Source: Candidatus Levybacteria bacterium RIFCSPHIGHO2_01_FULL_38_26 (GTDB lineage Bacteria; Patescibacteriota; Microgenomatia; Levybacterales; UBA12049). Taken from it: 61,434 bases of DNA. Below, piece after piece: positions 128 through 33,945 of this stretch. The stretch is from assembly GCA_001782075.1 (NCBI GenBank), contig MFNO01000037.1, forward strand, positions 1 through 61,434. Reading direction: 5' to 3'. The notes beneath the pieces were generated by a model. The model saw nothing but the letters and a program-made list of their open reading frames with translations. It was not told the origin of the DNA and searched no databases. Numbering within the stretch: position 1 is the stretch's first letter; each line of letters opens with the position of its first letter. The translations under genes and the position numbers were made by a program.

Positions 128-3100
128 ATGGAGCAGCCTATGCAGCAGGAAAGAGATAATCAGCAAAAAGCTCAATCTAGTGGCGAAGGAGAGTCTTCTT
201 TACCAGAACTAAAACTTACCGAGAGGCTCAAGTCTTCTGCGCCTCTTGTTCGGCTTCCTCAGAACATTGAATTTTCACCTGAAAAGGCTATTATTCAGCC
301 TTATGGTGAATACACAGTTGTACTAGGCCAAGGCGGGAACCAAATAGGCGTTATCGACAGCCAGGGAAGAAAAATTGATGAGCTGACAAATACAGAAGTT
401 TTGATTGCTGACTGGCGAGATTTGAGAAGGAATAGTAGCGGCGGTTATTATGGTGATCTAACAACTGGTCAAGGCGATTATTATAGCAAAAACGTCAGTG
501 GTCTTCCAGCGCGATTACGTCCGTATGCGGAGGAAATGATTAGACAAAACGGGGGCAAAAATATATTGATTCCACAGCAGACATGGAGGCTAGACACTCA
601 AGATATAGGTTCGATAAAAACAATAACGATCGGCGATAAGTATGTGCTGTTTGTTGATAAAGAAGGCTTGATAGCTTTTCAGGCAAAAAATGAGCAGGGG
701 GTTAATCTTCCTCCAAGAAATTGGAAAAGGTTAGATTCATTGGATAGCTGGATAAATAAGGTACCGCCGGAAATTAGAATAGCTGTAAATAATTCTAGAA
801 TAGAAGGTCTAAAATCTTTTATTCCTGATTCAGAGCGTGGTTTTGGAGTAAATGTACACGAAAATGATGTAAAAATAGTAAAATTCGGGAATCAGCCTGA
901 TAGCGAGTTATTTACGGATAGAATTAGAGGGGTAGATACTAATCTTTGCAGGGACCCAATTAATAAAAAAGTCTATTATTATTGTCAGAGCAATAATGCA
1001 GATACTTTAATAAAATTGGATACTACCCTGGATGATTCTAGCACGTGGCAGACGGAATCAGCAGAATTTCCTCAGAAATACGAAAATATTTCAAATCTTC
1101 AATTAGATCCAAGTGGAAATTTCTTTATGTTTCAATCAGGCGATTCTTATGTTTTTCTTGACAAAAATACGCTTCAAGAGGCAAAAAAGCTGCCAAAATT
1201 TTATAACGTTAAAGTTGACAGCGAGGGAAGACTCCGGGGAATTGATGCAAGGGGGCATCTGGTAATTTATGATGCGAATTTTCAGGAGGTAGCTCAAGCT
1301 GCCGAAAAAGCAAGAGTTGCGAGATTTGCACAGGGTTTGGCTGCTGGTTTATTCAAGAAAGAGGGAGAGGCTGCTCCAGCTAAGATTGACGTGGATCAAT
1401 TCCAGCATTTAGTTCCTGCAAAAACAGATTTTGAAACGCAATTTAATAATCAGCTTCAAACTATAAATAACCTGGATAATATTTCAGATATAAATCAAGC
1501 GCTAAACAGACTAAAATCTCGACTTTCCGGAGAGGGGTTAAAGCCTGATCAAATAGACTTTATTACCGGTGGAATTGCGGATTCGATTAGAGATAAGGAA
1601 GTAACGCTTGCCGCTCCTGTGATAGAGAATGACATCACAAGCCTTGATACGAAATTATCTTCTGGAAATCTTACCTTAGCAAGTATAGCTGAAGCAAGAG
1701 CTGATCTTGCAGAGCTAAAATCTCTTGAGGGACTGGCAGATGAAAATACGCGTTCGAAGATAACTGCTTTAGAATCAAGACTTGGTGAACAATCTGCAGA
1801 GCTTTTTAGAACTCAAGGCGCTGTCGTTGTGGAGCAGGCAAATGGTCTTGTCTCAGGCGTTCGAAATGAATTGGAACAAATGACAAGTATGCCGGCTTTT
1901 GCCGATTTTCAGGAATACAGACTTCCGCAACTCCTTTCAAGACTTGGGAGTCTGGCAAATGAGTGTCCTCTGGAGGCATCTGATATTCAAAGCGCAATCC
2001 TTTCTGCAAGAAGACAAATACAAGATCTATCAAGACAATACGAAAATACATTCAAAGAACATTATGCTCAAGTTCGGGAAAGAGCTTCGGAGGTCATGGG
2101 AGAAAGAGTAGAGCTATTAAGAACAGACGTTGATTCGTTTTTGGCTAGGTTGCGCGGCCGTGGATTTAAAGACAGAACGCAGGCGGAAACTTACATGAGA
2201 TCAAGCGAGTCTCTAGGGCTTCTGAGAACAGAAATAGAAGAGATGACAAGGCAAAATCCAGATATCTCACACGAGCTGGATAGGTATTTGAAAGTCCAGA
2301 TTGCAAACATAATGTCTGAGGTTGAAAGGGGAGGATTATCTACGGTTGCAGAGACAGGACAGCAAATGGAGCTTTTTGGAAAAACACTTTTCCTCAAATG
2401 GGAAGGACATGTGAAAGAGAAAACGCAGAAAAAAGTTGATCTTATTTTCATGGCAGAGGAAAGGACCAAGGGGCCAGGTATTCCGCCGGATCAGATCTAC
2501 GGTGATGTAGGACTTTCAGTTATTAATTCAAGAGGCGAAATGGAAAAAATAAGACTTTATGAAGGATGGGAGAAGGAAGATGCTGTCAGGTATGGAATCG
2601 AACCGTCAGTTCCTCCTTCGTATGTAAACTATGCCGAGTTTGGAAAAATAAGAAAAGACTATAATGACTGGAAACTTGGAGAAAATTCTGAAATCAGGAA
2701 AGGTCTTGATGATAAAGGTAATGAAGTTCGGGAAATTCGAAGAAAACTGCGTGAAGCAAAAGGTAATAGCCAGGAAGAAGAGACGCTCAGGGGTGAGTAT
2801 AAAAAAGCGCTTGATGATTATTTAGGTTTTTATGGAGAGAGACATTTATCTATTCTTCATCGTGTGGATCGTATAAAAAATGCTCCAGAATCTGAATATG
2901 AGAACGGAAAGGGATTTGTTCCTGAATGGGAGAGTCACTGGGTTGTTGACAACCAGACCGAAAAATATCTAGAAAATATGGCGGGTTCATTAAAGATGCA
3001 GATTGATCTTCAAGCAGATATTTTAAATTTGAAGGGGCACACAGGCACCGGTAAGGATCTATTGGTAAAAATGTTTGCCAACAGAACAAACAGGCCATAT

Positions 3101-3994
3101 TTTGCTATGGATTGTACCAAGTGGACAACTGAATTTGAGCTGTCAGAAGATGTTACGCTTGAATCAAAGGACGGTGCGTCGCAGACTGTAAAGGTGCCAT
3201 CAGTAGTACTAAATGCCATAACAACACCGGGTGCCATAATGTATTTTAATGAAATGAATGCGATGACTGAGCAGGCGCAAATATTTCTGCATGGTCTTAT
3301 GGATGAGAAAAGGACTTTGACTTTAAAGACAAGTTCTGGAAAGTCAGTAAAAGCGGATAAGGATGTTTTGCTGATAGGTTCAATGAATCCTGATTATCCA
3401 GGTACCTTTGCGCCTCAATTTGCAACAAGAGGAAGAATGGTTGAATTGGATATTGAATACCCCCCGCTTTATGGAGAAAGAGATCAGGGTGATACAAATC
3501 CGAATCGGCCTTTTAACTCTGCTGAGCCTTTGAGAATCGCAAGATCGGTAGACTCTTTATCTGATTTTACATATGAATCAAATCCTGAGTACAACGATTT
3601 TGTAAAGATTTGGGATAAAGAGGTGAATGGAGTCCAAAATGACGCGCCGGATCTGAATCCAACACAAAAATTTGATCTTGAAGTTATTCTCGCGCTTACT
3701 CAATTCGGAGACAAACTTCGAGAAGGATTTATGTTGAAATTTGATAAAGCGCGTGTTTCTGCGACTAGAGGGAATCTTTTGGTTAGTCAGCCGATATCAG
3801 GTAGGGAAATGAGGAGGTGCGCTTATATCCTTAGTAAAATGCCGGATGATCAAAAAGCAACAGCAGATCCTGAAGGAGTCGCAAGAGAATTGCTTGAGAA
3901 ATATTTCTTGACACATATTGACAATAGAGAGGAAAGAGGGCAGGTAAGAACTGCAATGGCTACTTGGACATCATCAAAAAGACCGGCTGCTTAA
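128..3994 (+). CDS. giant (1288 aa) protein with an unassigned N-terminal ~960 aa and a C-terminal AAA+ ATPase of the AAA_5 / MoxR / CbbQ-NorQ class
   Basis: Walker A GHTGTGKD (nt 3035-3058). Walker B-like IMYFNEMN (nt 3236-3259). The segment LLIGSMNPDYPGTFAPQFATRGRM aligns in my reading with the CbbQ/NorQ sensor region (SYNPGYQ...STRQRF). AGGAG RBS upstream. No signal peptide or TM segment is seen. Confidence 0.75.
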   Translation: MEQPMQQERDNQQKAQSSGEGESSLPELKLTERLKSSAPLVRLPQNIEFSPEKAIIQPYGEYTVVLGQGGNQIGVIDSQGRKIDELTNTEVLIADWRDLRRNSSGGYYGDLTTGQGDYYSKNVSGLPARLRPYAEEMIRQNGGKNILIPQQTWRLDTQDIGSIKTITIGDKYVLFVDKEGLIAFQAKNEQGVNLPPRNWKRLDSLDSWINKVPPEIRIAVNNSRIEGLKSFIPDSERGFGVNVHENDVKIVKFGNQPDSELFTDRIRGVDTNLCRDPINKKVYYYCQSNNADTLIKLDTTLDDSSTWQTESAEFPQKYENISNLQLDPSGNFFMFQSGDSYVFLDKNTLQEAKKLPKFYNVKVDSEGRLRGIDARGHLVIYDANFQEVAQAAEKARVARFAQGLAAGLFKKEGEAAPAKIDVDQFQHLVPAKTDFETQFNNQLQTINNLDNISDINQALNRLKSRLSGEGLKPDQIDFITGGIADSIRDKEVTLAAPVIENDITSLDTKLSSGNLTLASIAEARADLAELKSLEGLADENTRSKITALESRLGEQSAELFRTQGAVVVEQANGLVSGVRNELEQMTSMPAFADFQEYRLPQLLSRLGSLANECPLEASDIQSAILSARRQIQDLSRQYENTFKEHYAQVRERASEVMGERVELLRTDVDSFLARLRGRGFKDRTQAETYMRSSESLGLLRTEIEEMTRQNPDISHELDRYLKVQIANIMSEVERGGLSTVAETGQQMELFGKTLFLKWEGHVKEKTQKKVDLIFMAEERTKGPGIPPDQIYGDVGLSVINSRGEMEKIRLYEGWEKEDAVRYGIEPSVPPSYVNYAEFGKIRKDYNDWKLGENSEIRKGLDDKGNEVREIRRKLREAKGNSQEEETLRGEYKKALDDYLGFYGERHLSILHRVDRIKNAPESEYENGKGFVPEWESHWVVDNQTEKYLENMAGSLKMQIDLQADILNLKGHTGTGKDLLVKMFANRTNRPYFAMDCTKWTTEFELSEDVTLESKDGASQTVKVPSVVLNAITTPGAIMYFNEMNAMTEQAQIFLHGLMDEKRTLTLKTSSGKSVKADKDVLLIGSMNPDYPGTFAPQFATRGRMVELDIEYPPLYGERDQGDTNPNRPFNSAEPLRIARSVDSLSDFTYESNPEYNDFVKIWDKEVNGVQNDAPDLNPTQKFDLEVILALTQFGDKLREGFMLKFDKARVSATRGNLLVSQPISGREMRRCAYILSKMPDDQKATADPEGVARELLEKYFLTHIDNREERGQVRTAMATWTSSKRPAA

Positions 3995-4015
3995 TATTAG
4001 TTAAGAGGTTTAGAT

Positions 4016-7000
4016 ATGGATATGGATAAAGAAAGAGAGCCACAAAAACCTCCGCAAATAGATAAGTTTGCCCGCGAAAAAGTTTTTCTGGCAGGTCAGG
4101 CCTCAGAAGGAGGATTAAAAGTTTTGCCCGGCAAATCATGGTCTTTCCACTACCCAAATGGAGGAGAAGCAAAAAATGCGGCAATTTCCGGTTTGTTGTC
4201 CGGAGAAAAGAAACCTATCGATGTTACGGAGGATTTGAAGCCGGATGTGCTGATTTATGATGTTTCTACTCTTGAACAAGAAGGATTGCAATCGGTTGCC
4301 GGAAAAGTAAGAGATGTTTCTTCGTACGTTGCCCAATACGATTATCCAAGATTTGCTCAATTCGTATCACAGATGCACGGTACTGAGGTTACTCCTGATA
4401 CTGTTCAGGCTATTTATGATGGGATTGCTCAAAGTAGAATTCGTAAAAAAATGATTGACGCGTATGGTTTTACAGGTAGAAAACAGATAGAAGATGTGTT
4501 AAGGAGTGAGGCGGCAAGAACAGTTCAGCATATTGGGAGTCTTCCCAGAGTCCAAAAAGTATTGGAAGCTCTAAAAATGAATTGGCTGGCTGAAGATTTA
4601 CAACTTGCAAGAACAGAGCAGCGAGATCAAGTGATAGTTGAGCTTTCAGATGAAGAAAAAGAGCTTTATGGTCGGCTTAAAGAGCATTATCTAAATTACG
4701 TCAGAAGAGGAGATGAATCCGCTTATGAGGGTTTGGCAGGAGGAATTAAAGAAAATATTCCAAAGATTCAAAAAGAAGAAGAGCGAGCTGCTGATGAAAG
4801 TATGGAGAAGCTTGAACAGGAATTAGAAGAGTATAAGGATGAGGCTGTTCCTCCTGTGACACCGGGTGATCCTGCAATTCCACCTGATGATTCTGATGAA
4901 TATCACACGCCTCAAGTATCTCCATGGGAATCTAAGGAACAAGCAGCAGCGAGACCATATTTTGAAATAACGCCAAGCGGGTCAAGCACTAAACCGCTGA
5001 TAGGATATTATGCTTCGGGGCGAAAAAGTTACTATGATATTGAATCAAAAACATGGAGCAAGAAGAAACAGGTCTCATCATACAGCAAAGATATATCTAG
5101 CTCTGAAAGACAAACGATTTCCGGCACTACTGGTGGAGGATTAAAGTCTATTCCAATTCCTAACGGTTATGGACTGGCTGTGTCGTCTATTAAATTTAAC
5201 GGATCAAAACCAGAAATTTCGCGAGATCAAAATGGATGTTTTTACATTAATACGAGTGGTAACTGCAATTTTGAAGTAGATTTTTTGAAAGAAGATCCGA
5301 TTTTCGTTGGTTCTCCTGTAGAGAAAGATTCAGAAGAAATTTATAGAGGTGAATTGTCAACAGAGACAGAAGATGTGATCAGAAATGCGTCAGGAGGGTC
5401 GTTGGAAAAAGCAGAAACACTTCGTAATTACTTACTTTCCAAGCATTACTATCCGGGTGACGGGGATCTTAAAATGGCTCAGGCTCTGCAGTTGAAGCTT
5501 AGGAGAGATTCGACAGGAGATAATTACATCCAAAATCTTGATAAAAGTGAATATCTAGAGTGTTATTCGGCAAACACACTTTATATAGCCATGCTTAGGA
5601 AAGCTGGGATTTCATCGAGATTGGTCCTTGGCCATAGAGTCGAAAAAGCAATCGAAGGTAAAGCAACAATTGATTCAACGACCGGTCATGCGTGGTCAGA
5701 GGTTTGGGACGGATCAGCTTGGAGAAGGATGGATGCGACGCCCAAGCCAAAGCAACAAAAGCAAGATCAGGATCTGGATCAAACTACGCCTTCAGAGGAG
5801 GCAGAAGATAATGGAATAAATAGATCCTTCGACGAAGCTCAGGATAAACAAGATCGGGGGGGTCAAGATGAACAAGGTGAGTCACATTTTGATCAGGGTA
5901 ATAGATCTACGGACCCTTTGCAAATGGAAGAGGCCTCAGATCAGGATGTCTCACAAGGTGAGTCCGATCTGTCAAACGCTCAAGAATTTTCCGATAAGGT
6001 AAATAAAGAAAAACATTCTCTTGATCAACAGGTTCAGGATTCCCTTTCTTTCAAAGACTTGCAAAAGTTAGAACAAGATACTCAGGAATCTGATTTGTTT
6101 GATGATATGAAGGAGGATCTTCAGAAAAAGCTGGAATCAAAAGAGGAGCAAATGAAAGAGGAGATGAAAAAAAATCTTGATGAGATGGTTGAGGATGGAT
6201 TTTTGGATGAGGAGAGAAGGCAAGAACTTGAAGACCAGATCAACGAAAAGCTCCTAGAAGAATTAGATAGTCTTAAGCAGCAAATAGAGAAAGAAAACGT
6301 CATGTTTAGCGAGTACCAAGATATTAAAGAAGAAGTAATGCCGTTGGTTGATAATTGGTTTGAATATTTCGTTGAGAGACTTCCAAGACAAGAGGAGGTT
6401 GAATTGGATGAAGATTCTCTAACTCGCCAAGGCGCTTTTAATAGACATTCCGTCATGAAGCCAAGAAACTTACTTTTTGGAACTGTTAAAAACCCTCGTA
6501 TCATCAAACCATCTATTAAGCCGAAATTTTTAGCTGAAGCAGTTGTTGATGTAAGCGGATCAATGGCTGGAGAAAAACTTAATAGAGCAAGAAAGCTACT
6601 TGTCTTTTACAATGAACTTTTCTCAAGAATTGGCGATGAGTTTGGTTATATCAGATACGCAAATACTGTTTTTTCCGACACTGTAAAAGAGATAAAAACA
6701 TATGATCAGGAATATGATAGTCCAATAAGATATGATTGGGGTGACGGAGCCAAGTCGACTGTTAAGGTTCGATTGATGGAGTCGCTTATTGCAGGAGGAG
6801 GGACAGATATGCTTCCTGCTATCAAGAAAGCAGCCGGAGAATTAAATAAAGAGACTTTTGAATATCCTGATTATGCATCAGCGCTATATTTTATTGGTGA
6901 CGGAGGAGATACATCAGGAAATGCTCAGAGAATTAAAGAGTTTTTAAGGATAAACGAAGCAGAACATGGATTTGGAGAGCACATGCTGTCGGCAATAATG

Positions 7001-7150
7001 TTAGGGGATGAATCGCAAAGACAGGAGTTGGCAGCTATTTTTGGCGATGAGCATACTACCGTTGCGCCAGATTTCGATACACTAATCGAACAGAGTATGT
7101 ATAAATTCGATGAAGATATAGAAGACTATCTGAAAGATAAAACTATATAG
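4016..7150 (+). CDS. 1044-aa protein: unknown N-terminal domain, transglutaminase-like Cys-His-Asp core, D/E-rich coiled-coil linker, C-terminal von Willebrand A (MIDAS) domain
   Basis: Transglutaminase core ECYSANTLYIAMLRKAGISSRLV...GHAWSEVWDGSAWRRMDATP (Cys codon 5561, His 5687, Asp 5732). MIDAS motifs DVSGSM (from nt 6548), GGGTDM and IGDGGDT. Acidic low-complexity stretch at roughly nt 5740-6325. The ORF starts 22 nt after the AAA+ gene. Confidence 0.8.
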   Translation: MDMDKEREPQKPPQIDKFAREKVFLAGQASEGGLKVLPGKSWSFHYPNGGEAKNAAISGLLSGEKKPIDVTEDLKPDVLIYDVSTLEQEGLQSVAGKVRDVSSYVAQYDYPRFAQFVSQMHGTEVTPDTVQAIYDGIAQSRIRKKMIDAYGFTGRKQIEDVLRSEAARTVQHIGSLPRVQKVLEALKMNWLAEDLQLARTEQRDQVIVELSDEEKELYGRLKEHYLNYVRRGDESAYEGLAGGIKENIPKIQKEEERAADESMEKLEQELEEYKDEAVPPVTPGDPAIPPDDSDEYHTPQVSPWESKEQAAARPYFEITPSGSSTKPLIGYYASGRKSYYDIESKTWSKKKQVSSYSKDISSSERQTISGTTGGGLKSIPIPNGYGLAVSSIKFNGSKPEISRDQNGCFYINTSGNCNFEVDFLKEDPIFVGSPVEKDSEEIYRGELSTETEDVIRNASGGSLEKAETLRNYLLSKHYYPGDGDLKMAQALQLKLRRDSTGDNYIQNLDKSEYLECYSANTLYIAMLRKAGISSRLVLGHRVEKAIEGKATIDSTTGHAWSEVWDGSAWRRMDATPKPKQQKQDQDLDQTTPSEEAEDNGINRSFDEAQDKQDRGGQDEQGESHFDQGNRSTDPLQMEEASDQDVSQGESDLSNAQEFSDKVNKEKHSLDQQVQDSLSFKDLQKLEQDTQESDLFDDMKEDLQKKLESKEEQMKEEMKKNLDEMVEDGFLDEERRQELEDQINEKLLEELDSLKQQIEKENVMFSEYQDIKEEVMPLVDNWFEYFVERLPRQEEVELDEDSLTRQGAFNRHSVMKPRNLLFGTVKNPRIIKPSIKPKFLAEAVVDVSGSMAGEKLNRARKLLVFYNELFSRIGDEFGYIRYANTVFSDTVKEIKTYDQEYDSPIRYDWGDGAKSTVKVRLMESLIAGGGTDMLPAIKKAAGELNKETFEYPDYASALYFIGDGGDTSGNAQRIKEFLRINEAEHGFGEHMLSAIMLGDESQRQELAAIFGDEHTTVAPDFDTLIEQSMYKFDEDIEDYLKDKTI

Positions 7151-7206: not shown

Positions 7207-8307
7207 ATGCTTATAAAACCTCAGACTACAAATTTTGCCAAGCTTCGAGTAATGGGTGTTGGAGGAGGAGGAAATAATGCTCTCAACTCCATGATCTCCC
7301 AGTCCTCAATTCAGGGTGTTGAATTCGTGTCAGTCAATACTGACGCACAAGCTTTACTTCTTTGCCTGGCTTCTACAAAGCTTCAAATAGGAGAGAACTT
7401 AACAAAAGGTTTGGGATCTGGTGGAAATCCTGAGATAGGAAAACAAGCGGCTGAGGAATCATACGAGAAAATAAAAAAACTTATTGACGGGACAGACATG
7501 GTTTTTGTGACTGCCGGGATGGGAGGAGGAACAGGCACAGGCGCGACTCCTATAATCGCCAAGGCTGCCAAAGAGGTGGGAGCTTTGACTGTCGCTGTTG
7601 TTACCAAACCGTTTTCTTTTGAGGGGACACGCAGAATGGTTACGGCTGAAGATGGAATTGAAGGACTCAAAGACAAAGTGGATACGCTTATTGTTATACC
7701 GAATCAGAGAATTTTGGATGTTGTCGACAAAAAACTGTCGCTTATGGATGCATTCAAAGTCGCAGATTCTGTTTTGTCTCAAGGCGTGCAGGGAATATCA
7801 GATATTATCACTGTTCCAGGGCTTATAAATGTAGATTTTGCTGATGTAAAAACTATCATGTCAAACGCGGGATCGGCTCTGATGGGAATTGGTACGGGAG
7901 TTGGGGAGAATAGAGCTCAGACAGCGGCAAGGACTGCTATTGCATCTCCGCTTCTTGAGATATCCATGGATGGGGCAAGGGGAGTGTTGTTTAATGTATC
8001 AGGAGGAGGAGATTTGACGATGAGTGAAGTTGATGAGGCAGCGCAAATTATAGCCTCCGCTGCTGATCCTGACGCAAATATAATTTTTGGCGCGACCCTT
8101 GATGAATCAATGCATGACCAGATAAAAATTACGGTTATAGCCACAGGATTTGACCACTCAAGACAGACTTTTAGAGAATTTGTCGCTCCGCCAGCGCCTC
8201 AGAAAGAGGCGGCAAAAGAAGAACCGCAGCAGCCTCCTGTGCAGGAAAAGAAAGACGAAGGCGCAGATGTCTGGGACATCCCAGCATTTTTGAGGCAGAA
8301 GAATTAG
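7207..8307 (+). CDS. ftsZ: cell division GTPase FtsZ
   Basis: GVGGGGNNA and the tubulin signature [14 protein letters not shown]-terminal conserved peptide DIPAFLRQK. Confidence 0.97.
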
Positions 8308-8558
8308 GATTTTTCTTTATCAATTTTGTTTTTTAATTTTATAAACCTGAATAACCCCAAGATTAGAAGAAAAAATCCAATAGCTATTGGGATAATTGAA
8401 AAAACATATGCTATTTGTGTTTGTTCGAAGCGAATGATCAATGCCCCTGTTAGAAGAAAACCAAGACCTGTTCTGATATATGCCAAAAATGTTCTTTCAT
8501 TTGCCAGATGAGTTCTGTCTCTTGCCAGAGATTCCCGCAATGTTGAGTCTTCGGCCAT
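8304..8558 (-). CDS. DUF202 (YidH-like) small membrane protein
   Basis: Motif [20 protein letters not shown] followed by two hydrophobic helices. Confidence 0.65.
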
Positions 8559-8669: not shown

Positions 8670-8966
8670 ATGCTTGAAGGAGAAAAAGCAACTGACCCGC
8701 AAGAAGCAGCAAGATTAGAAAATCAAATTTTGCAAACCAAAAAGATGATGGAATTGGTTAGGATTCGGATCATTCAGTCTCCTTACTTTTCGTATACTGA
8801 GCTCTTTCAGGACCCAAATGGTGGTTTTGAGGAAAGGATAATTGACGTGAAAGATTTAGACGTACTAGTTCATACTTATTTAAAATTAATAGATAATCAA
8901 AATGAAGCAAATAGAAATAGAAACGCAATTGGAACAGAAAAAGTTTTGTTTACAAAAAATTCTTAG
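8670..8966 (+). CDS. hypothetical protein (98 aa)
   Basis: ORF only. No motif recognised. Confidence 0.3.
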   Translation: MLEGEKATDPQEAARLENQILQTKKMMELVRIRIIQSPYFSYTELFQDPNGGFEERIIDVKDLDVLVHTYLKLIDNQNEANRNRNAIGTEKVLFTKNS

Positions 8967-8972
8967 CGTAGC

Positions 8973-11468
8973 TTAGAGTTCTTCCAATGCCTGCTGGATT
9001 TTTTCGGTTGCCTCTTTATAGCTGATAGTTTTGGAAAAGGTTAGGGGCTTGCCTATTTTTACCCAAACTTTTTGTCTTTTTTTGGGTATATTTTCCCAAA
9101 ACCCGCCTATTGGAGGGAAAATTTCTCGGTAGGCTGGGTCAATTTTGATTGGAATTACTGGGACTTGCATTTCAACGGTCATAAACCCAATCCCTTCTTT
9201 AAATTTTAGTAGATTTCCGTCTTTGCTGAAAGTTCCCTCAGGAGCAAGGAGGATTGAATACCCTTTGTCTAGAAATTCTCCGGTTAGTTCAAGTGACGCT
9301 TTTATTCTTTTTTTCTTATCAAAAGGAAAACCGCCTCCCAAAAGCTGCACAAAGTTTTCGCGGTAATCGAGCCAAATGTCTGAGTTGACAGCAATGACTA
9401 GTTTTTCTCTAATTTTGCTAGGAAGGCTGCGTAATACACAAGCTCCATCCATGACTCCTATGTGATTGAAGTAAAAAATTGCCGGAAGATTTATGTTTTT
9501 TAAATTTTCCTTTCCTTCAATACTCATAGGCACAAAAAGCGAATGGATAGGGAATGTGAAGCAGTTTTGTAAAAAAGTTCTTAATTTCGCGGCTTTTGGG
9601 CTATATATCCATTCTGAAATTGGGATCTCCTCTGCAGATGATGGAGCAACTTTAATGAGTTTTCTTAAATCACCGACGGTCGTTTGTGGGTTTATTTTAG
9701 TTTCTGAAATTGCTACTATATACTCTTGTTCTATCAAAGATAAAATTTCAACTCTTTGCAAAGAATCGAGTTTTAGATCTGTAGCCAAGGTGGAAGTCTC
9801 TTTGATTTTTGTAGTAGGTAGCTTGGCTACTTGAGATATAAGGTTTATTAGCTTATCTTGAGGTTGTATTCCTTTTGTCAGGGGATCCTTCGACTTCCCT
9901 TGGACAAACTCGGGGTTGCTCAGGGTGACTTGCGTCACTTTTTTTCTATCTATTTTAAGTATCGGCGTCCTGGGAAAGTCCTCGCCTTGCCACAGACTGT
10001 ATTCAAGTATTTGCTCATGAGAAGCGAGTTTTTGATTTGTGTCCTTTATGATTTTGGAAAGTTTGTTGGGGAATTTGGTAATAATTACCGCATGAACTGT
10101 CTCTCCTTCTTCATTTTTAACTCCAACTATGCATGATTCAATGACGAGAGGGTGAGCGTTTAATTTTTTTTCTATGTCTTCAGGATAAACTTTTTGCCCA
10201 TTAGGAAGAACAATTCTGAATGCGACTCTCCCCGTTATGTATACGAAACCATCATTATCTATTTTTCCTACATCTCCTGTATGATACCACCCGTCAACAA
10301 AAGCGGAATTTGTTTTTTCTTTGTCTTGAAAATACCCGGAAGAAATATTGGGTCCTTTCGCTAAAATTTCTTGTGATTTATCGTCTATTTTTATAGATAC
10401 TCCTGGCAGGGGTTTTCCAACCGATCCTAATTTTTTTTGAAAAGGAGTATTGATCGTCAAGACCGCGGTAGTTTCTGTCGCGCCGTATCCTTCAAATATA
10501 CTAACTCCCAAATTTTCCCATTTTTTCACTAACTTCAAATTAAGCGGTGCTGATCCGCAGCCAAAAAACAAAAGGCTGGGACCAATTTTGTCAAGGACTG
10601 GTTTAAAAATAATTCTTCTAGCCCAAAATGGAAGATTTTCAGATATACTGTTTAACATTTTCCAGGTCTTTTGTTTGTTTTCTTTCTCAACTTCGGCTTC
10701 AATTCCTCTCATTAATAGCTGCAGCGCTTGAGGTACGAGAGCAACGGAAGTGATTTTATTTTTTCTCAACGCTTTTGCTAGAGTGATTCTGTTAATTCTT
10801 TCCAAATAAGTTACCTTGATGCCTGTTTTGAATGGTACAAGAAAATCAACAAGCTGCTCAAAAACGTGGGAAAGCGGAAGTAGAGATAGTGCTTTGTATT
10901 GACTCTTGAAAGGGAAAGCTTCGGTTAGTGCATCAATGTTTGATAGAAAATTCGCGTGTGTCAAAACCACGCCTTTTGGAGTACCAGTTGTTCCCGAAGT
11001 GAAGGCAATTTCAGCAAGGTGATTTGTGTTTATATTGGAGGGAGCGGATAGGAGGGGGAAATTTTTTACCAACTCAGTTAAATCCTCCAAATAAAAACTC
11101 TGTTTTAATAGCTTGCCAAAAGTTCCAGGAATAAATTTGCCTTTGAATCCTACTTTGCAGGATGCTTTTGTCAAAAAAATTTTCAAAGTTTCATCTGTCG
11201 TTCGAATATCAATGGGGACAGCTATCGCTCCAATATTCCAGCAGGCAAAGAAAAATATGGCGTATTCAGGCATGTTTGACGACCATATCGCGACTTTATC
11301 ATCTTTTTTAACTCCATTGTGAGCAAGAAAAGCAGACGTTTTTAAGACAAGATCATGAACTTCCTCGAAAGTAAATCGTTGCGTCCTAAATCCTCGTTTT
11401 ATTTCATAGGCGATTCTATTTTTGTGAATCCCCGAGTATTCTTTCAGAAACTGTCCTAGGTTTTGCAT
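8973..11468 (-). CDS. three-domain fusion: ANL-superfamily acyl-AMP/acyl-ACP ligase, acyl carrier (PP-binding) domain, and PlsC-type lysophospholipid acyltransferase
   Basis: AMP-binding motifs FTSGTTGTPKGV, GYGATE and YHTGDVG. Carrier motif DLKLDSLQRVE. Acyltransferase motifs NHIGVMD (HX4D) and LAPEGT. I place the start at ATG 11468 (MQNLGQ...), 7 nt after the upstream stop. The ORF-track start at 11549 would overlap the upstream gene by 74 nt. Confidence 0.85.
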   Translation of the reverse strand: MQNLGQFLKEYSGIHKNRIAYEIKRGFRTQRFTFEEVHDLVLKTSAFLAHNGVKKDDKVAIWSSNMPEYAIFFFACWNIGAIAVPIDIRTTDETLKIFLTKASCKVGFKGKFIPGTFGKLLKQSFYLEDLTELVKNFPLLSAPSNINTNHLAEIAFTSGTTGTPKGVVLTHANFLSNIDALTEAFPFKSQYKALSLLPLSHVFEQLVDFLVPFKTGIKVTYLERINRITLAKALRKNKITSVALVPQALQLLMRGIEAEVEKENKQKTWKMLNSISENLPFWARRIIFKPVLDKIGPSLLFFGCGSAPLNLKLVKKWENLGVSIFEGYGATETTAVLTINTPFQKKLGSVGKPLPGVSIKIDDKSQEILAKGPNISSGYFQDKEKTNSAFVDGWYHTGDVGKIDNDGFVYITGRVAFRIVLPNGQKVYPEDIEKKLNAHPLVIESCIVGVKNEEGETVHAVIITKFPNKLSKIIKDTNQKLASHEQILEYSLWQGEDFPRTPILKIDRKKVTQVTLSNPEFVQGKSKDPLTKGIQPQDKLINLISQVAKLPTTKIKETSTLATDLKLDSLQRVEILSLIEQEYIVAISETKINPQTTVGDLRKLIKVAPSSAEEIPISEWIYSPKAAKLRTFLQNCFTFPIHSLFVPMSIEGKENLKNINLPAIFYFNHIGVMDGACVLRSLPSKIREKLVIAVNSDIWLDYRENFVQLLGGGFPFDKKKRIKASLELTGEFLDKGYSILLAPEGTFSKDGNLLKFKEGIGFMTVEMQVPVIPIKIDPAYREIFPPIGGFWENIPKKRQKVWVKIGKPLTFSKTISYKEATEKIQQALEEL

Positions 11469-11475
11469 AAATTTG

Positions 11476-12387
11476 CTATATGTTTTTGTTAAGAAACTTG
11501 AGAACCTTTTCTTGATATTCTTGTCTGAGCTTTTCTGGCAATCCTCCATGAACGCCTTCCTCCTGGAAAAGGAACTCTGCTCTTGGGTTATTTTTTAAAG
11601 AATCTTTGATTCTAGTTGCGTTTTCAAATGGGATTACCTGGTCTTTTTTTGAATGAATAATAAGTATTGGAATTTGCAGGTTTTTTGCCGAAGCTTGCGG
11701 AGAAATTTCGCTTGGATAAACGCCGACAAAGATTTTAGCCCAAATTTTTGTCAGTGAAGATAAAGGATATTTAAATACAAACAGATTTTGATAGTATTCA
11801 TTTATCACAAGATCAAGATTGGCATAAGCGCTGTCCGAAACTACCGCATTTATTCTTGTATCCTTGGCCGCAGTCATGATCGCAACCGCGCCCCCTAAAG
11901 AAAATCCCATTATTCCTATTCTATCAAATCCCTGCCCGCCGGCAGGCAGGCTCCTTTTTTCCAGATAATCAAGCGCACTTGCAAGGTCTTTTTGTTCGTG
12001 GTATCCGACTGTGGTCATAGAACCTTCCGAATCTCCAAAATAGCGAAAGTCAAAAAATAAAAGATTAAAATCGTCGTGCAAAAATGATGCCCATCCTAAA
12101 ATGTTTGCCTTGTCGAAAGGATAACCGTGAAGAAGTATTATTGTCTTGTCCGAATTTTTTTCTGCCGGAACGAACCAGGCGGAAAGCCTGATATTATCGA
12201 TCGTGGTTAAATTTATGGCTTGAAAGCTCCATTCGAAGTCCTGAGGAGTTAAATTAGTTTTGTATTTTGGAGGATGGGTCGCCGACCAAAATCCATAAAG
12301 ACTAAAAACTATTATAAATAATGTAAAAAATAAAACAAACGGCAAAATCATTTTATATATTTTAGAGTTTTTAATCTTAAATTTCAT
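11476..12387 (-). CDS. membrane-anchored alpha/beta hydrolase (lipase/esterase-like)
   Basis: N-terminal TM helix, HGYP oxyanion-like region, nucleophile elbow GFSLGG. Confidence 0.75.
   Translation of the reverse strand: MKFKIKNSKIYKMILPFVLFFTLFIIVFSLYGFWSATHPPKYKTNLTPQDFEWSFQAINLTTIDNIRLSAWFVPAEKNSDKTIILLHGYPFDKANILGWASFLHDDFNLLFFDFRYFGDSEGSMTTVGYHEQKDLASALDYLEKRSLPAGGQGFDRIGIMGFSLGGAVAIMTAAKDTRINAVVSDSAYANLDLVINEYYQNLFVFKYPLSSLTKIWAKIFVGVYPSEISPQASAKNLQIPILIIHSKKDQVIPFENATRIKDSLKNNPRAEFLFQEEGVHGGLPEKLRQEYQEKVLKFLNKNI
11931..11950. repeat. 20-nt GC-rich near-palindrome CCTGCCCGCCGGCAGGCAGG inside the hydrolase CDS; it contains the 10-mer GGCGGGCAGG (reverse strand) shared with 25249-25258 and 61274-61283
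   Basis: Read directly. It encodes LPAGGQG in frame. CCTGCC/GGCAGG can form a hairpin. Confidence 0.7.
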
Positions 12388-13675
12388 CTGCTAACTTATA
12401 CAATTTCACAAAAACTAAATATCCCAAAAAGGTAGCAATTCCCGCAATCGGACCAATTAGACGGATTCCCAGTGAATTTTCGTTCGTTGCCCCAAAAAAA
12501 GAAAGAGTTACACCAAAAATCACACTGGCAATGGCAAAAGAAAACTTCTGAAGCGTATTTTGCATGCCGTAATAAATCGCCTCGCGTCTTTGGTTCGTTT
12601 TTTTAGTATCATAGTCAATGATATCAGCTAGTATTGCGTTGGGAAAGATGAATTGTCCTGAGAGACTAATTCCAATAAAAACAGTAATCGCGGCTGCTTG
12701 AAAAAATGAAGTTGAGATTGGGAAAAAACCTACCAAAAAAAGAAGCGGAAAGACAAGGCTTAACGCAAGCATAGAATTTGAATATATTTTCTTTTTGCCA
12801 AACCTTTTAGATAAATGGGTTTGAATCGGCAGGGCCAACAGCATGCTTATCAAAACAATTGCTGAAAAAACCGCAACCATTCCTTCCGGCTGACCGAGTA
12901 TAAATTTTACAAAAAAGGGAATGAGGGCGTTTAAGAGATTAAATCCCATCGAGAAAAGCACAAAAGCAATTGAGAAAATTAGAAAATGCCTGTTTTTTAT
13001 TGTTGTTAGAAGTGAGCGATAAATTGTCAGATTTGATGGCTGGATGTTTATTTTACCGGGTTTAAGCAGTTTGCCGGCAATTCCAAATATCGAAACCCAA
13101 AATGTGGTGAGGGTTAATACTGCCAAAATTGCTCCCATCGCGGCAAAACCGAAATTTTGTATTAAAACACTTGAGCCTACAAGTCCGATCGCCGCACCAA
13201 CTATCCCAAACAAAACTCTCCATGCCGATGTTGAAACTCTTTCTTCTGAAGATTTTGCGATTTCGGGCAATATACCCTCATATGGAGCAGACACAAGGGT
13301 GTATGTGAGAAAGAAAAACTGAAGGGTTATAAAAAAATAAATTGAGTTTATGAAAATTGATCCTTGAATCGGAGTCCACAGAAGAAAAAAACTCAATGCC
13401 AAAAAAGGAGCTCCTATAAAAATAAAGGGAAACCTTCTTCCCCAACGAGATTTTGTTCTGTCCGAGATATGACCGATTAGAGGATCGTCAAAAGCCTCAA
13501 TAAATCTTCCAATTCCCATAAGTATACCAAGAATACCAATAGGAATAAGGGCTTTATTTGGATCTCCGCCTCCTGACCAGAAGAAAAACAGCCATGCTGA
13601 GACTGCCTGAAAAGAAATGTTTTCTCCGGTTCCCCCGACAGCGAAAAAAATTTTGTGCCTTGCGGATAGACTCAT
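12377..13675 (-). CDS. MFS transporter of the GPH / MFSD2-like type
   Basis: About 12 TM helices. GPH-type loop motif GHISDRTKSRWGRRFPF. Confidence 0.8.
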   Translation of the reverse strand: MSLSARHKIFFAVGGTGENISFQAVSAWLFFFWSGGGDPNKALIPIGILGILMGIGRFIEAFDDPLIGHISDRTKSRWGRRFPFIFIGAPFLALSFFLLWTPIQGSIFINSIYFFITLQFFFLTYTLVSAPYEGILPEIAKSSEERVSTSAWRVLFGIVGAAIGLVGSSVLIQNFGFAAMGAILAVLTLTTFWVSIFGIAGKLLKPGKINIQPSNLTIYRSLLTTIKNRHFLIFSIAFVLFSMGFNLLNALIPFFVKFILGQPEGMVAVFSAIVLISMLLALPIQTHLSKRFGKKKIYSNSMLALSLVFPLLFLVGFFPISTSFFQAAAITVFIGISLSGQFIFPNAILADIIDYDTKKTNQRREAIYYGMQNTLQKFSFAIASVIFGVTLSFFGATNENSLGIRLIGPIAGIATFLGYLVFVKLYKLADEI

Positions 13676-14034
13676 TATTCTAGAATAGCAACAAATTGAG
13701 CAATAGTATAGGCGCCCTGATGGGTGATACTAAGGGCAGAATTTTGAGCTTTGAATTTTGCCTGCCCGCCGAATTGGAGGGAATTTTGAATTTGGACTTC
13801 AGGTGACCCATTTGATTTATAAGTTATAAGAATTTCGAGCCATGAATCTGTGGATAGTGACAGAGCTTTTATAACTGCCTCTTTGGCTGCAAAAATTCCT
13901 GCCAATCGAGTAGGATCGTTATTTATCAACTCTTCTTCAAAGTAAACACGGCGAAGGAAATTCTCTCCGCCATTTTTTAGCGATTTTTTAAAAAGTGGCA
14001 AATAAACCAAGTCAATTCCTGATCTAATTATCAT
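13675..14034 (-). CDS. acpS: holo-[acyl-carrier-protein] synthase (4'-phosphopantetheinyl transferase)
   Basis: N-terminus MIIRSGIDLV, FAAKEAVIKAL, and C-terminal LSITHQGAYTIA. ATGA overlap with the upstream gene. Confidence 0.8.
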   Translation of the reverse strand: MIIRSGIDLVYLPLFKKSLKNGGENFLRRVYFEEELINNDPTRLAGIFAAKEAVIKALSLSTDSWLEILITYKSNGSPEVQIQNSLQFGGQAKFKAQNSALSITHQGAYTIAQFVAILE

Positions 14035-15029
14035 AAGCGCATAAATACTTTGTGTAGAAATACAAAAAGTCCTGAAAATTCATTAATCATCTCAACTGAA
14101 ATTCCTTCTTTGGGCTGAACATGCTTGAATAAATTGGCAAGGTGATAGTCATAAGACTTTCCTTTTTCCTCCAAGGCTTGTTTTAATTTGATAGATTCTG
14201 TGTAAGGCACGAATGTATCGCTTTTTTCATGGAGAATGAAGATTTTTGCATTAACGCTATCGATGTTTTGGTCGGGAGAAAAACGGGATAATCTTCCCGC
14301 AAGCTCCGGATCTAAAAGATTTTTTTTATCAAACATATTAAGTAATAATCCTTCTTTTTCAAGGGTTCTTTGGGCGTGATCAACTGCGCTTTTAGCAGCT
14401 TGCCATCGTGTTGTTTGTTTATCCAAAACAATCGTGTTTGTGGATAAGGAAGACAGATAATCCAAGATGCTGTAATAACCTCCGAAAAACACAACGCTTC
14501 GGACGTACTCGTTTATTTTTTCATCCTCTGCCGCAACAAGGGCTAGCGAAGAACCGACAGAGAAACCAACATATGATATTCTATTTTTGTCAACATCATC
14601 CCGCTCTTTTAGAAAATTAAATGAATCAATAAATGTTTGCGGTTCTTCGAGTTTTATAACATCATTTTCCAGATCCACACTTCTTGGCCATAAAACTACG
14701 TAACCAAGTCTTGCCAGGGTCTCACAGAAGCCCAAAAGAATTGGTCTGTCTTTATCGGATGTTTTTAATCCCATTGCAACAATAATTGCGGGTTTGATGT
14801 TAGCATTTTTAGGAATAAAAAGATCTCCTACTGCTTTTGCGCCATCGGGTGATGGGCTAAATTGTACTTTTTCAACAATGGGGTCTTGTGTAATATTATG
14901 AAGTGGTCTGAAAGGGATTTGGGGGAATTCCTGTGCGATCAAAAGCACCACCTTTGCGGCCGCGGCAAGAGGATTAATAGATATAAGAAAGATAACAAGG
15001 ACTGTTAGTAAAAGAAGCAGTAATTTCAT
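14031..15029 (-). CDS. secreted or anchored alpha/beta hydrolase (dienelactone hydrolase/esterase-like)
   Basis: Signal/anchor MKLLLLLLTVLVIFL, nucleophile elbow GFSVGS. Start taken at ATG 15029, immediately after the stop of the small upstream ORF. Confidence 0.7.
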   Translation of the reverse strand: MKLLLLLLTVLVIFLISINPLAAAAKVVLLIAQEFPQIPFRPLHNITQDPIVEKVQFSPSPDGAKAVGDLFIPKNANIKPAIIVAMGLKTSDKDRPILLGFCETLARLGYVVLWPRSVDLENDVIKLEEPQTFIDSFNFLKERDDVDKNRISYVGFSVGSSLALVAAEDEKINEYVRSVVFFGGYYSILDYLSSLSTNTIVLDKQTTRWQAAKSAVDHAQRTLEKEGLLLNMFDKKNLLDPELAGRLSRFSPDQNIDSVNAKIFILHEKSDTFVPYTESIKLKQALEEKGKSYDYHLANLFKHVQPKEGISVEMINEFSGLFVFLHKVFMRL

Positions 15030-15030
15030 T

Positions 15031-15198
15031 TTATTTCTTCTCTTCCACAATTTCTCCTTCTACGATTTTGCTTCTATCAATATTCAAGTGAAACTGTTTT
15101 TTGTCCGTTTTCTTCCGTCCTATTTTTCGCAAAAAATAGAAGACCAAAAGGGGTGCGAGAAACAAAAGTATTTTTTTAAATATAACTATAGGAATCAT
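15031..15198 (-). CDS. small single-pass membrane protein (about 55 aa)
   Basis: MIPIVIFKKILLFLAPLLVFYFL followed by a basic tail. Operon position only. Confidence 0.3.
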   Translation of the reverse strand: MIPIVIFKKILLFLAPLLVFYFLRKIGRKKTDKKQFHLNIDRSKIVEGEIVEEKK

Positions 15199-15247
15199 AT
15201 TTATACCGTAAAGTATATCAAAAATTGGAGAAAAATAGACAGAATTG

Positions 15248-25153: not shown

Positions 25154-25256
25154 GACCCGCCTGCACTGGCCGATTGGCTCAGTTGGTTAGAGCGCTTCAT
25201 TCACATTGAAGAGGCCGGAGGTTCGAATCCTCCATCGGCCACAGTTATGGCGGGCA
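25154..25256 (+). other. intervening sequence in the tRNA-Thr D-loop: GA-CCCGCC-TGCACT-[tRNA-Val]-CAGTTAT-GGCGGG-CA
   Basis: A 6-bp GC clamp (25156-25161 with 25249-25254) encloses the nested tRNA. Confidence 0.6.
25168..25241 (+). tRNA. tRNA-Val(CAC), canonical 74-nt cloverleaf nested inside the tRNA-Thr gene
   Basis: GGCCGAT TG GCTC AGTTGGTTA GAGC G CTTCA TTCACAT TGAAG AGGCC GGAGG TTCGAAT CCTCC ATCGGCC A. Confidence 0.9.
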
Positions 25257-25313
25257 GGACGTCTCGTTCGTATCGAGAAGGTCGAAGGTTCGATCCCTTC
25301 CGAGTCCACCGCG

Positions 25314-28437: not shown

Positions 28438-28440
28438 TCA

Positions 28441-30322: not shown

Positions 30323-30327
30323 GATTT

Positions 30328-33900: not shown

Positions 33901-33945
33901 ATGATTTGATAGAATCTTTCGTTTGATATAATTTTGATAAATAAT

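Follow-up and report, generated by a model that had tools for sequence, protein, structure and literature searches.

The 61,434-nt contig MFNO01000037.1 (called the window below, meaning this whole stretch of DNA) comes from Candidatus Levybacteria bacterium RIFCSPHIGHO2_01_FULL_38_26, a bacterium of the Microgenomates group within the Candidate Phyla Radiation (CPR; Patescibacteria), and contains a run of five minus-strand genes that overlap or abut each other. The last gene of this run encodes a single polypeptide, designated here as the fusion, which joins an AMP-forming ligase of the ANL superfamily, an acyl carrier domain and a PlsC-type acyltransferase. The four preceding genes encode, in the order of transcription, an alpha/beta serine hydrolase of 339 amino acids (aa), an AcpS-type 4'-phosphopantetheinyl transferase, an MFS_2 transporter and a second alpha/beta serine hydrolase of 303 aa, and the coordinates of all these genes, domains and motifs are collected in Table 1. 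The isoleucyl-tRNA synthetase of the window has its best named matches in Patescibacteria and Levybacteria only, with 64-75% identity. DNA of the window was detected in groundwater and soil metagenomes. Loci of relatives are referred to by numbers beginning with L and database proteins by numbers beginning with P.

Table 1. Features of the fusion gene, its operon and the adjoining upstream region; residues of the fusion are in the 831-aa numbering and positions are those of the window.
Feature	Residues	Position	Strand	Remarks
Fusion gene, 831 aa		8973..11468	-	Encodes the three domains listed below; stop codon at 8973-8975
ANL (AMP-forming) ligase domain	16-512	9933..11423	-	Pfam AMP-binding and AMP-binding_C_3, Foldseek
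Ligase motif A3, TSGTTGTPKG	157-166			Occurs once in fusion
Ligase motif A5, GYGATE	327-332			Occurs once in fusion
Ligase motif A7, YHTGDVG	395-401			Occurs once in fusion
Ligase motif A8	413-419
Ligase A10 lysine	K505	codon 9954-9956	-
Carrier (PP-binding) domain	538-607	9648..9857	-	Pfam, Foldseek matches to acyl carrier proteins
Carrier motif LDSL	567-570	S569 codon 9762-9764		Occurs once in fusion; S569 is the phosphopantetheine serine
PlsC-type (LPLAT) acyltransferase domain	619-831	8976..9614	-	Pfam PF01553, phmmer, Foldseek
Acyltransferase block I, NHIGVMD	HX4D (HIGVMD) 669-674	H669 codon 9462-9464; D674 codon 9447-9449		HX4D occurs once in fusion
Acyltransferase block II, FPFDKK	714-719
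Acyltransferase block III, PEGT	743-746			Occurs once in fusion
Acyltransferase block IV, VPVIPI	769-774
Alpha/beta serine hydrolase, 339 aa (DLH / Peptidase_S9 / BD-FAE-like)		14031..15050	-	First operon gene; Pfam
AcpS-type 4'-phosphopantetheinyl transferase, 119 aa		13675..14034	-	PF01648, E 2.9e-10, 40.6 bits vs 25
MFS_2 (GPH-family) transporter, 432 aa, multi-spanning		12377..13675	-	PF13347, E 5e-60, 203.6 bits vs 27
Alpha/beta serine hydrolase, 303 aa		11476..12387	-	Pfam; best PDB match esterase 5g59, 7e-26
Promoter-like site TTGATA-16-TATGAT		15194..15221	-	Candidate; in 197-nt gap upstream of first operon gene
UPF0182 multi-spanning membrane protein, 925 aa		15248-18025	-	Directly upstream of operon; L001 counterpart 1300-4119

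The maximal open reading frame (ORF) of the fusion covers 8973..11549 on the minus strand and encodes 858 aa. The start at 11468 is situated 7 nt past the TAG stop of the upstream hydrolase gene, coincides with the start of a 100%-identical database protein (P0001) and matches the N-termini of 29 homologs upon alignment, and hence the 831-aa version is taken as correct. The alternative start at 11549 was rejected, as it would generate a 74-nt overlap with the upstream gene and its counterpart is absent in homologs. Pfam coordinates were obtained in the 858-aa numbering, with subtraction of 27 giving the 831-aa numbering, and on this scale place AMP-binding (PF00501) at residues 43-407 (E 3.7e-68, 230.5 bits vs a gathering score of 29.9), AMP-binding_C_3 (PF23562) at residues 445-539 (E 8.7e-6, 26.6 bits vs 20.8), PP-binding (PF00550) at residues 565-630 (E 3.5e-8, 34 bits vs 20.8) and Acyltransferase (PF01553) at residues 677-803 (E 4.7e-16, 59.2 bits vs 23). 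The features that define each of the three domain types are found together with these matches, namely the motifs A3, A5, A7 and A8 and the A10 lysine of the ANL superfamily, a four-helix fold with the serine of the D-S-L motif heading helix II for the carrier, and blocks I, III and IV with a PlsC-like fold for the PlsC/LPLAT family. The original prediction, made from the letters alone, had read three sets of catalytic motifs in one 831-aa ORF and named Pfam calls of AMP-binding, PP-binding and Acyltransferase domains as the way to check this; indeed, every motif that it quoted occurs exactly once, all three domains score above their thresholds and structure searches agree. Assignment to a narrower family is less direct. 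NCBIfam models of fatty-acid, o-succinylbenzoate and malonate ligases match the fusion, all below their curated cut-offs, with a fatty-acid-CoA ligase subfamily as the best match (271.6 vs a cut-off of 476), and no curated family in the NCBIfam search was reached above its cut-off. The same three kinds of ligases are the nearest sequence relatives of the ligase part in PDB. No transmembrane segment is predicted in the fusion, which would be a peripheral membrane enzyme by analogy with the lysolipid-reacylating Aas of E. coli.

An AlphaFold2 model of the full-length fusion, built on 30 homologs, has a mean predicted local distance difference test (pLDDT) value of 85 and a predicted template-modelling score (pTM) of 0.79. 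In the model, the ligase is followed by a disordered linker (residues ~522-536), then by a small helical carrier and an alpha/beta domain that begins with a long helix (residues 624-645), with S569 located at the N-terminus of helix II, which starts at this very residue. A Foldseek search of PDB with the full-length model is dominated by the ligase domain, with FadD13 (3r44) as the top match (E 7.8e-38) followed by other ANL enzymes, and therefore residues 530-831, comprising the carrier and the acyltransferase, were modelled separately (pLDDT 86.5). With this C-terminal half, the top match is PlsC of Thermotoga maritima (5kym; E 6.6e-9, 25% identity, target-normalised TM-score 0.62), followed by glycerol-3-phosphate acyltransferase (GPAT) 1, squash GPAT, PatA and LpxM, and many acyl carrier proteins (ACPs) match the carrier domain (TM 0.77-0.89, root-mean-square deviation 1.1-1.9 A). 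A phmmer search of PDB with the same part similarly gave 5kym as the best match (1.9e-8), and ACPs appeared from 1.4e-4.

The catalytic residues are conserved over a wide range of divergence. In 30 full-length homologs with 39-74% identity, the A3 residues, Y328, G329, E332, D399, G413, R414 and K505 of the ligase, D568 and S569 of the carrier, and P743, E744 and G745 of the acyltransferase are invariant. In a wider set of 88 fusion copies from 85 loci (28-100% identity), the A3 core TSG is retained in all 88 and its lysine in 87, the carrier serine is likewise kept in 87, and the A10 lysine is present in all except L015. The PEG block is found in all except L047, L060, L071 and the truncated L048. 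The NHx4D block is retained across these 88 homologs with the exception of the degenerate L047 and one small clade. This clade is the sister of the window clade, belongs to Chloroflexota and shares 40-43% identity (L003:8001-10493, L006, L017 and P0079-P0113), and its members have FNYQGPY in place of NHxGxxD, with loss of both the His and the Asp of HX4D, while the carrier serine and the PEG block are kept and, in L003, so is the neighbouring MFS_2 gene. In such members, the C-terminal domain may act as a pseudo-enzyme or scaffold, or may employ other catalytic residues.

Turning to the other products of the operon, the 339-aa hydrolase begins with a signal-peptide-like segment (MKLLLLLLTVLVIFLISINPLAAAAK) with a hydrophobic 19-mer at residues 10-28, carries a GFSVG nucleophile elbow (GxSxG at residue 162) and, judging from its N-terminus, is probably exported. 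Its orthologs are equally placed in L001, L004, L086 and L088, and a BD-FAE hydrolase adjoins the fusion in L172. AcpS carries the motifs GIDLV and FAAKEAVIKA, which we take to hold the metal ligands, and has the length, the PF01648 match and the G-x-D and F-x-x-K-E-A signatures of group I AcpS; it is presumed to prime the carrier domain of the fusion. The best PDB sequence matches of the MFS_2 protein are MFSD2A lysophosphatidylcholine symporters (8d2s, 7mjs and 7oix; 3e-20 to 6e-18), a likeness by which it is a candidate lysolipid importer or flippase. The N-terminus of the 303-aa hydrolase is Lys-rich and leads into a single transmembrane segment (residues 13-31), and the protein has a GFSLG elbow, a layout that suggests that it is probably a membrane-anchored, outward-facing esterase or lipase. 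In L001, L004, L087 and L172, an ortholog of this hydrolase separates MFS_2 from the fusion, and none is present in L086, L171 and L173. Hydrolases are found in five of the seven loci that share the core of the operon, and hence are regarded as accessory. In a promoter and terminator scan of the operon, such sites were not above shuffled expectation, and the promoter-like site preceding the operon is a weak candidate.

Gene linkage was counted using the window proteins as phmmer queries on all fusion loci. The full operon arrangement recurs in L001 and L004, and its core, AcpS-MFS_2-fusion, is present at 60-70% identity in seven loci, comprising the window, L001, L004, L086, L171 (Microgenomates), L172 (Curtissbacteria) and L173. 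In 12/12 loci of CPR bacteria, DPANN archaea and Dependentiae, the fusion has an AcpS gene no more than 3 kb away, as compared to 7/73 others (Fisher p 3.8e-10), these 12 loci being not independent of each other and distributed over three or more separate clades of the fusion tree. AcpS is also linked to the fusion in L086, L088, L091, L136 and L171-L173. None of the acidobacterial copies has an AcpS gene within 3 kb; L080 alone has one on the locus, located ~6.5 kb off on the opposite strand, and Acidobacteria with the fusion presumably have a housekeeping AcpS elsewhere. This linkage is as expected if the carrier needs priming and reduced genomes have no other phosphopantetheinyl transferase, and the dedicated AcpS argues for a working carrier domain. 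The MFS_2 gene adjoins the fusion also in the Chloroflexi loci L003, L010 and L020. When the test was reversed with 80 metagenome transporter loci, close MFS_2 relatives (at least 62% identity) were found in the same operon where contigs show the neighbours (L086-L088, L091 and L136). In L109 (5989-9843), the module is split, with a hydrolase and MFS_2 accompanied by a separately encoded PlsC-type acyltransferase (2.9e-24) and by a convergent ANL ligase. Among loci of distant MFS_2 relatives, L094 carries LPG_synthase_TM with a weak acyltransferase match, L093 also carries LPG_synthase_TM, and L098 contains a ceramidase-like gene with a hydrolase. Hydrolases further appear next to the AcpS-fusion pair in other lineages, since in L071 of Woesearchaeota a member of the 303-aa hydrolase family (1e-64) adjoins fusion-AcpS, followed by an MFS_1/ATG22-like transporter, and a PGAP1/LCAT-like hydrolase precedes AcpS-fusion in L022 of Saccharibacteria and in L048.

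Well over 100 full-length proteins of the same Pfam architecture are present in the protein database, where the family bears no other names than 'AMP-binding protein' at NCBI and 'long-chain acyl-CoA synthetase' at JGI; the named relatives at 60-63% identity belong to Microgenomates and Curtissbacteria. When one genome per GTDB species was scanned, the fusion was found in at least 420 species. These include Chloroflexota, with Ktedonobacteria at 58-59% identity in genomes of 5.6 and 8.9 Mb, many Acidobacteriota, Dependentiae, DPANN archaea (Woesearchaeota), the CPR phyla Saccharibacteria, Parcubacteria, Uhrbacteria and Levyibacteriota, and single genomes of Spirochaetia, Planctomycetia, Verrucomicrobiia and TA06. 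Dictyobacter has the fusion and none of the partner genes. A search with the carrier-acyltransferase part against 1.84 billion representatives gave 194 clusters at E <= 1e-30, the best 150 of which are either proteins of ~800-880 aa with a C-terminal match, fragments, or stand-alone carrier-acyltransferase proteins of ~300 aa, with none exceeding 882 aa. The stand-alone proteins (P0254, P0263 and P0294) start directly with the carrier domain. A rough neighbour-joining tree places the window clade, composed of Microgenomates-type CPR and Ktedonobacteria, inside the diversity of Chloroflexota, and contains a separate clade of Woesearchaeota with Levyibacteriota, Saccharibacteria and Parcubacteria, and a third clade with Uhrbacteria, Dependentiae and one Verrucomicrobiia genome. 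The fusion gene has evidently moved between lineages.

Two further observations concern the distribution of this family. Metagenome-assembled genomes of Woesearchaeota and of an unclassified archaeon (L037, L041, L042 and L071) carry a bacterial-type fusion with an adjacent AcpS gene, which suggests inter-domain transfer and possibly the presence of fatty-acyl ester lipids in these archaea, with binning errors being possible in assemblies of this kind. In addition, some Chloroflexota have two divergent fusion paralogs a few kb apart, as observed in L007 (3007-5352 and 7842-10523), L013 (5552-8029 and 10794-13322) and L020 (2257-4830 and 7992-10481), and in L007 and L013 the two paralogs flank a single AcpS gene.

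The host background of the operon was addressed by two screens. Pfam searches of nearly all non-overlapping window ORFs of at least 100 aa, with the omission of six ORFs of the ATP-synthase region at ~42.3-47.4 kb, revealed no lipid-synthesis gene. When stop-to-stop ORFs of at least 40 aa from the window, its 10-kb upstream flank and the loci of three relatives were searched with the E. coli proteins PlsX, FabH, FabD, FabG, FabF, FabZ, AccA, CdsA and PlsY, no match was obtained; in the same search, AcpP weakly matched the fusions of two of the relatives' loci only, and PlsC matched the fusion only. The original prediction had stated that fab genes are absent from the window, and this holds and extends to pls and cds genes and to a gene for free ACP in the 61-kb window and the 10-kb flank. 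CPR bacteria are reported to be generally without lipid synthesis pathways and rich in lysolipids, neither ACP-producing nor ACP-requiring enzymes were found in the CPR genomes studied by Probst et al. 2020, and the source of CPR lipids was called 'elusive' (PMC7242380). The bacterium that carries the operon is probably unable to produce fatty acids.

Taken together, we favour the reading, to which we give somewhat better than an even chance, that the fusion acts as the central enzyme of a compact lipid-salvage operon, which reacylates lysolipids in the manner of the LplT-Aas system with a private carrier and a private priming enzyme. In such a pathway, the two exported or membrane-anchored hydrolases would act outside the cell on lipids of the host or the environment, releasing free fatty acids, lysolipids or both, and MFS_2 would bring the lysolipid to the cytoplasmic leaflet, as LplT does for Aas and MFSD2A for lysophosphatidylcholine. 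AcpS of the operon would convert S569 to the holo form at the expense of coenzyme A (CoA), after which the ligase would generate acyl-AMP from a free fatty acid and ATP and load the acyl chain as a thioester on the phosphopantetheine arm in cis. The acyl-carrier would then swing on the flexible linker to the PlsC-type domain, where the HX4D dyad would transfer the chain to the free hydroxyl of the acceptor, a lysolipid judging from the gene context, to yield a diacyl membrane lipid. These activation and transfer steps are modelled on the established chemistry of ANL enzymes, carriers and PlsC-type enzymes, whose motifs appear intact in the fusion. As both loading and transfer would proceed in cis, no fatty acid synthase, free ACP or acyl-CoA pool would be needed. 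The salvage interpretation put forward in the original prediction is hence supported, as far as computation goes, by the operon-encoded AcpS, the MFSD2A-related transporter, the two exported or anchored hydrolases and the CPR host.

Several points weigh against lipid salvage as the function of this operon. A PlsC-fold domain would accommodate glycerol-3-phosphate, lysophosphatidic acid (LPA), a lyso-glycolipid or a non-lipid acceptor equally well. The loss of HX4D in the FNYQGPY clade indicates that acyltransferase chemistry is dispensable in some members of the family. The fusion also occurs in large genomes of free-living bacteria (Dictyobacter and Acidobacteria) that presumably make their own fatty acids, and therefore salvage replacing synthesis is not the only role of the family; in free-living members, it may serve in remodelling or repair, by analogy with Aas. 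As to the transporter, MFS_2/GPH is mainly a family of glycoside (sugar) transporters, MelB matches the operon protein nearly as well as MFSD2A does (7e-18), and most MFS_2 relatives at 27-40% identity have no adjoining fusion gene, so that the MFS_2 family as a whole is not lysolipid-specific. The outward orientation proposed for the hydrolases follows from the positive-inside rule only. AcpS needs CoA, the supply of which in this host is an assumption of the model. None of the RNA runs that were searched contains the fusion gene, and the functions proposed for the fusion and its operon are derived from sequence, structure models and gene context.

With regard to other explanations, the acceptor might be glycerol-3-phosphate or 1-acyl-glycerol-3-phosphate, in which case the fusion would replace PlsB/PlsY or PlsC and MFS_2 would import a glycoside, a glycerol derivative or some other compound. 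The nearest solved fold and sequence of the C-terminal domain indeed belong to an LPA acyltransferase (5kym), with GPATs coming next, and many CPR and DPANN members have AcpS alone beside the fusion, without a transporter. Furthermore, PlsY and PlsC without a pathway for the acyl donor are reported from some CPR genomes (PMC7242380). However, alignment revealed FPFDKK and PEGTFS at blocks II and III of the fusion as compared to FLDR and EGTRS in T. maritima PlsC, and thus the fusion lacks the arginines of block II (FxxR) and block III (EGTR) that are characteristic of canonical LPA and glycerol-3-phosphate acyltransferases. These arginines presumably bind the phosphomonoester in PlsC proteins. 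EGTRS is retained in some other members of the fusion family, and the aligned E. coli Aas has VPLDPT without arginine at block II and PEGRIT at block III, with an arginine right after EG. As read from these alignments, the missing arginines would be a small point in favour of a lysophospholipid over LPA or glycerol-3-phosphate as the acceptor. The tight AcpS-MFS_2-fusion core and the lipid-gene neighbours of MFS_2 relatives also fit a lipid substrate better, and we regard a glycerol-3-phosphate or LPA acceptor as unlikely.

A second explanation retains the same chemistry and assigns it to membrane repair, or to detoxification of lysolipids and free fatty acids released by phospholipases of the cell itself or of hostile neighbours. 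Such a role is documented for LplT-Aas (PMC11416262), and would suit the occurrence of the family in Chloroflexi and Acidobacteria with large genomes and a free-living habit, for which nutritional salvage is unnecessary. In contrast, the presence of an own AcpS in CPR, DPANN and Dependentiae loci suggests that no other ACP system exists in the cell, the exported hydrolases of the window clade would generate the substrate rather than merely clear it, and CPR bacteria are reported to be without lipid synthesis altogether (PMC7242380), which together render repair as the main function improbable. Of the same low probability, in our estimate, is a third explanation, namely that the fusion is a specialised enzyme resembling ElbD of Myxococcus xanthus, acting in ether-lipid synthesis or in the acylation of a glycolipid, lipoamino acid or secondary metabolite. 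ElbD has the same domain order, reductase-less ElbD-like homologs are reported from other phyla (PMC9131029), and acidobacterial and Chloroflexota homologs of ElbD are discussed as candidate ether-lipid genes (bioRxiv 10.64898/2026.06.23.733905). The fusion, however, is without the FAR domain and has only ~45 residues between the carrier and the acyltransferase. Pfam scans revealed no elbB/elbE-, HAD, epimerase, AGPS- or reductase-type gene in the operon or window, and the window has no nonribosomal peptide synthetase or polyketide synthase genes. Since no cluster among the 150 nearest exceeds 882 aa, a close reductase-bearing relative of the ElbD type is not found among them. Lastly, that the fusion is a plain long-chain acyl-CoA synthetase with 300 vestigial or structural residues at its C-terminus, as could be drawn from the database labels, from the best, sub-threshold NCBIfam match and from the loss of HX4D in the sister clade, is highly improbable in view of the conservation of the carrier serine in 87/88 homologs and of HX4D in nearly all of them over 28-100% identity, the co-encoded dedicated AcpS, the stand-alone carrier-acyltransferase proteins of ~300 aa, which mark this part as an independent, selected unit, and the confident model of the C-terminal half.

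Beyond the lipid-salvage operon of the window itself, a broader and more tentative proposal, which we hold to be possible rather than probable, is that AcpS and the fusion constitute a horizontally mobile, self-sufficient lipid salvage cassette, which would be the general route to membrane lipids for cells of both domains that depend on a host and lack lipid synthesis, namely CPR bacteria, Dependentiae and DPANN archaea. Equally tentatively, this cassette might be extended in some lineages by a transporter of the lysolipid type and by exported lipases, and might convert fatty acids and lysolipids of the host into the diacyl ester lipids of the cell. If true, archaeal membranes would be expected to contain fatty-acyl ester lipids of the bacterial type in the case of the Woesearchaeota copies. 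CPR and DPANN account for a large share of microbial diversity, and most of them are without fatty acid and phospholipid synthesis. The AcpS-paired operon offers a concrete and testable candidate answer to the question of how their membranes originate, as it gathers at one place the putative functions of substrate release, transport, fatty acid activation, a private primed carrier and acyl transfer. Given the generic labels in present use, the AcpS-fusion pair could also serve as a marker for lipid-salvage capacity in metagenomes. No description of the fusion or the operon from CPR or DPANN was found in the literature library that was searched.

The surroundings of the operon contain several candidates for membership that were considered and rejected. 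Downstream of the fusion, a 98-aa ORF (8670-8966, plus strand) abuts its 3' end, has no Pfam match and also bears a gene call in the JGI version of this contig; it is convergent to the fusion and was excluded. The gene for a DUF202 protein (8304-8558) was likewise excluded, as this convergent ORF separates it from the fusion. On the other side, the UPF0182 gene is adjacent to the operon in the window and in L001, where we take its orientation to be the same, and is missing from L004, L171, L172 and L173, and is thus probably outside the module.

Elsewhere in the window, two very large plus-strand ORFs are situated in a division cluster, between FtsA, which is in the upstream flank, and FtsZ (7207-8307). 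The first (128-3994; 1288 aa) has only an AAA_5 domain (dynein-related/MoxR-like) near its C-terminus, and the second (4016-7150; 1044 aa) has a transglutaminase-core match only. A low-GC island on the plus strand (~25200-37660; GC 0.31-0.37 vs ~0.38-0.41 for the 18 kb at the start of the window) carries surface-glycan genes for GT4 and GT2 glycosyltransferases, a DegT aminotransferase, a Wzx-like flippase and a methyltransferase, together with three consecutive PMT_2 (ArnT-like) membrane glycosyltransferases and a ligase or polymerase of the Wzy_C type. At its edge, tRNA-Val(cac) (25168-25242, plus strand) overlaps the called TTG start of the GT4 ORF (25206-26357), and hence the real start of the latter is further downstream. 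At 54758-56841 on the minus strand, a MurT-like Mur ligase (MurT_C) adjoins a CobB/CobQ-type glutaminase (GATase_3), a pair that we take to amidate the stem peptides of peptidoglycan in Gram-positive bacteria.

Among known systems, LplT-Aas of E. coli (aas, b2836; lplT, b2835; NCBIfam PRK08633/PRK06814 for the fused forms) is the closest working analogue of the window operon. LplT flips lysophospholipids inwards and Aas charges free holo-ACP to acyl-ACP, with which it reacylates the lysolipid; both form a complex through the transferase domain and are fused in some bacteria (PMC11416262). In Aas, as proposed for the fusion, an ANL domain loads the phosphopantetheine of a carrier and a PlsC-type domain passes the acyl chain to a lysophospholipid, and in each case the enzyme is encoded in an operon with an MFS transporter. 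The original prediction maintained that the domain order of Aas is reversed in the fusion and that the carrier is built in. BLAST bears this out, as each of the two catalytic domains has a homologous counterpart in Aas (ligase, 27% identity, E 1e-28; acyltransferase, 21%, E 1e-8) and the two stand in the opposite order, the acyltransferase being N-terminal in Aas and C-terminal in the fusion, and no region of E. coli Aas, which uses free holo-ACP, aligns to the PP-binding domain. The window operon also differs from LplT-Aas by the co-encoded dedicated AcpS and the exported hydrolases, and its MFS_2/GPH transporter belongs to a different MFS family, without similarity to E. coli LplT (E 1.5), of which it may be an analogue and is no ortholog. 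NCBIfam models of Aas match the ligase part of the fusion only, with 208.3 vs 1221 bits and 181.1 vs 1349 bits. As the fusion thus lacks the N-terminal position of the acyltransferase, the dependence on a carrier that is not its own and the LplT partner that distinguish Aas, the window system is to be considered an analogue assembled from homologous parts and not an ortholog.

Other systems share single aspects. Chlamydia trachomatis AasC (CT776) and the lysophospholipid acyltransferase CT775, and Vibrio harveyi AasS, allow the use of host or exogenous fatty acids via acyl-ACP with synthesis being bypassed (PMC5693948, PMC12086093), with separate proteins and the free ACP of the cell, whereas in the window ligase, carrier and transferase are on one chain with an own priming enzyme. 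MFSD2A (sodium-dependent lysophosphatidylcholine symporter 1) and the window transporter belong to the same Pfam family, MFS_2, a likeness at the family level from which the substrate is not deducible. T. maritima PlsC (5kym; 1-acyl-sn-glycerol-3-phosphate acyltransferase) shares HX4D, the PEG block and the VPxxP block with the fusion; it is a stand-alone protein of 250 aa that takes acyl-ACP or acyl-CoA in trans, while its counterpart in the fusion shares one chain with a carrier of its own. ElbD (Q1DC43), which was compared by its description only, has FAR-ACS-ACP-AGPAT domains and acts in ether-lipid synthesis as part of the elbA-E operon; its ACS and ACP activities were confirmed in vitro and its acyltransferase activity was never detected (PMC9131029). 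In 2014, 'ElbD-like' homologs without FAR were pointed out in other phyla, and these are reported never to have been characterised (PMC9131029). ElbD and the fusion hence have the ACS-ACP-AGPAT-like order on one chain in common and differ in the N-terminal FAR-like reductase of ElbD, a reductase-bearing protein of this type being absent from the 150 nearest clusters of the fusion. Thus, the tri-domain architecture is already known from ElbD and widespread and does not define a new kind of enzyme, and the window operon is best read as a variant of lysophospholipid reacylation that brings together an AcpS of its own, a transporter resembling MFSD2A and hydrolases with export or anchor segments.

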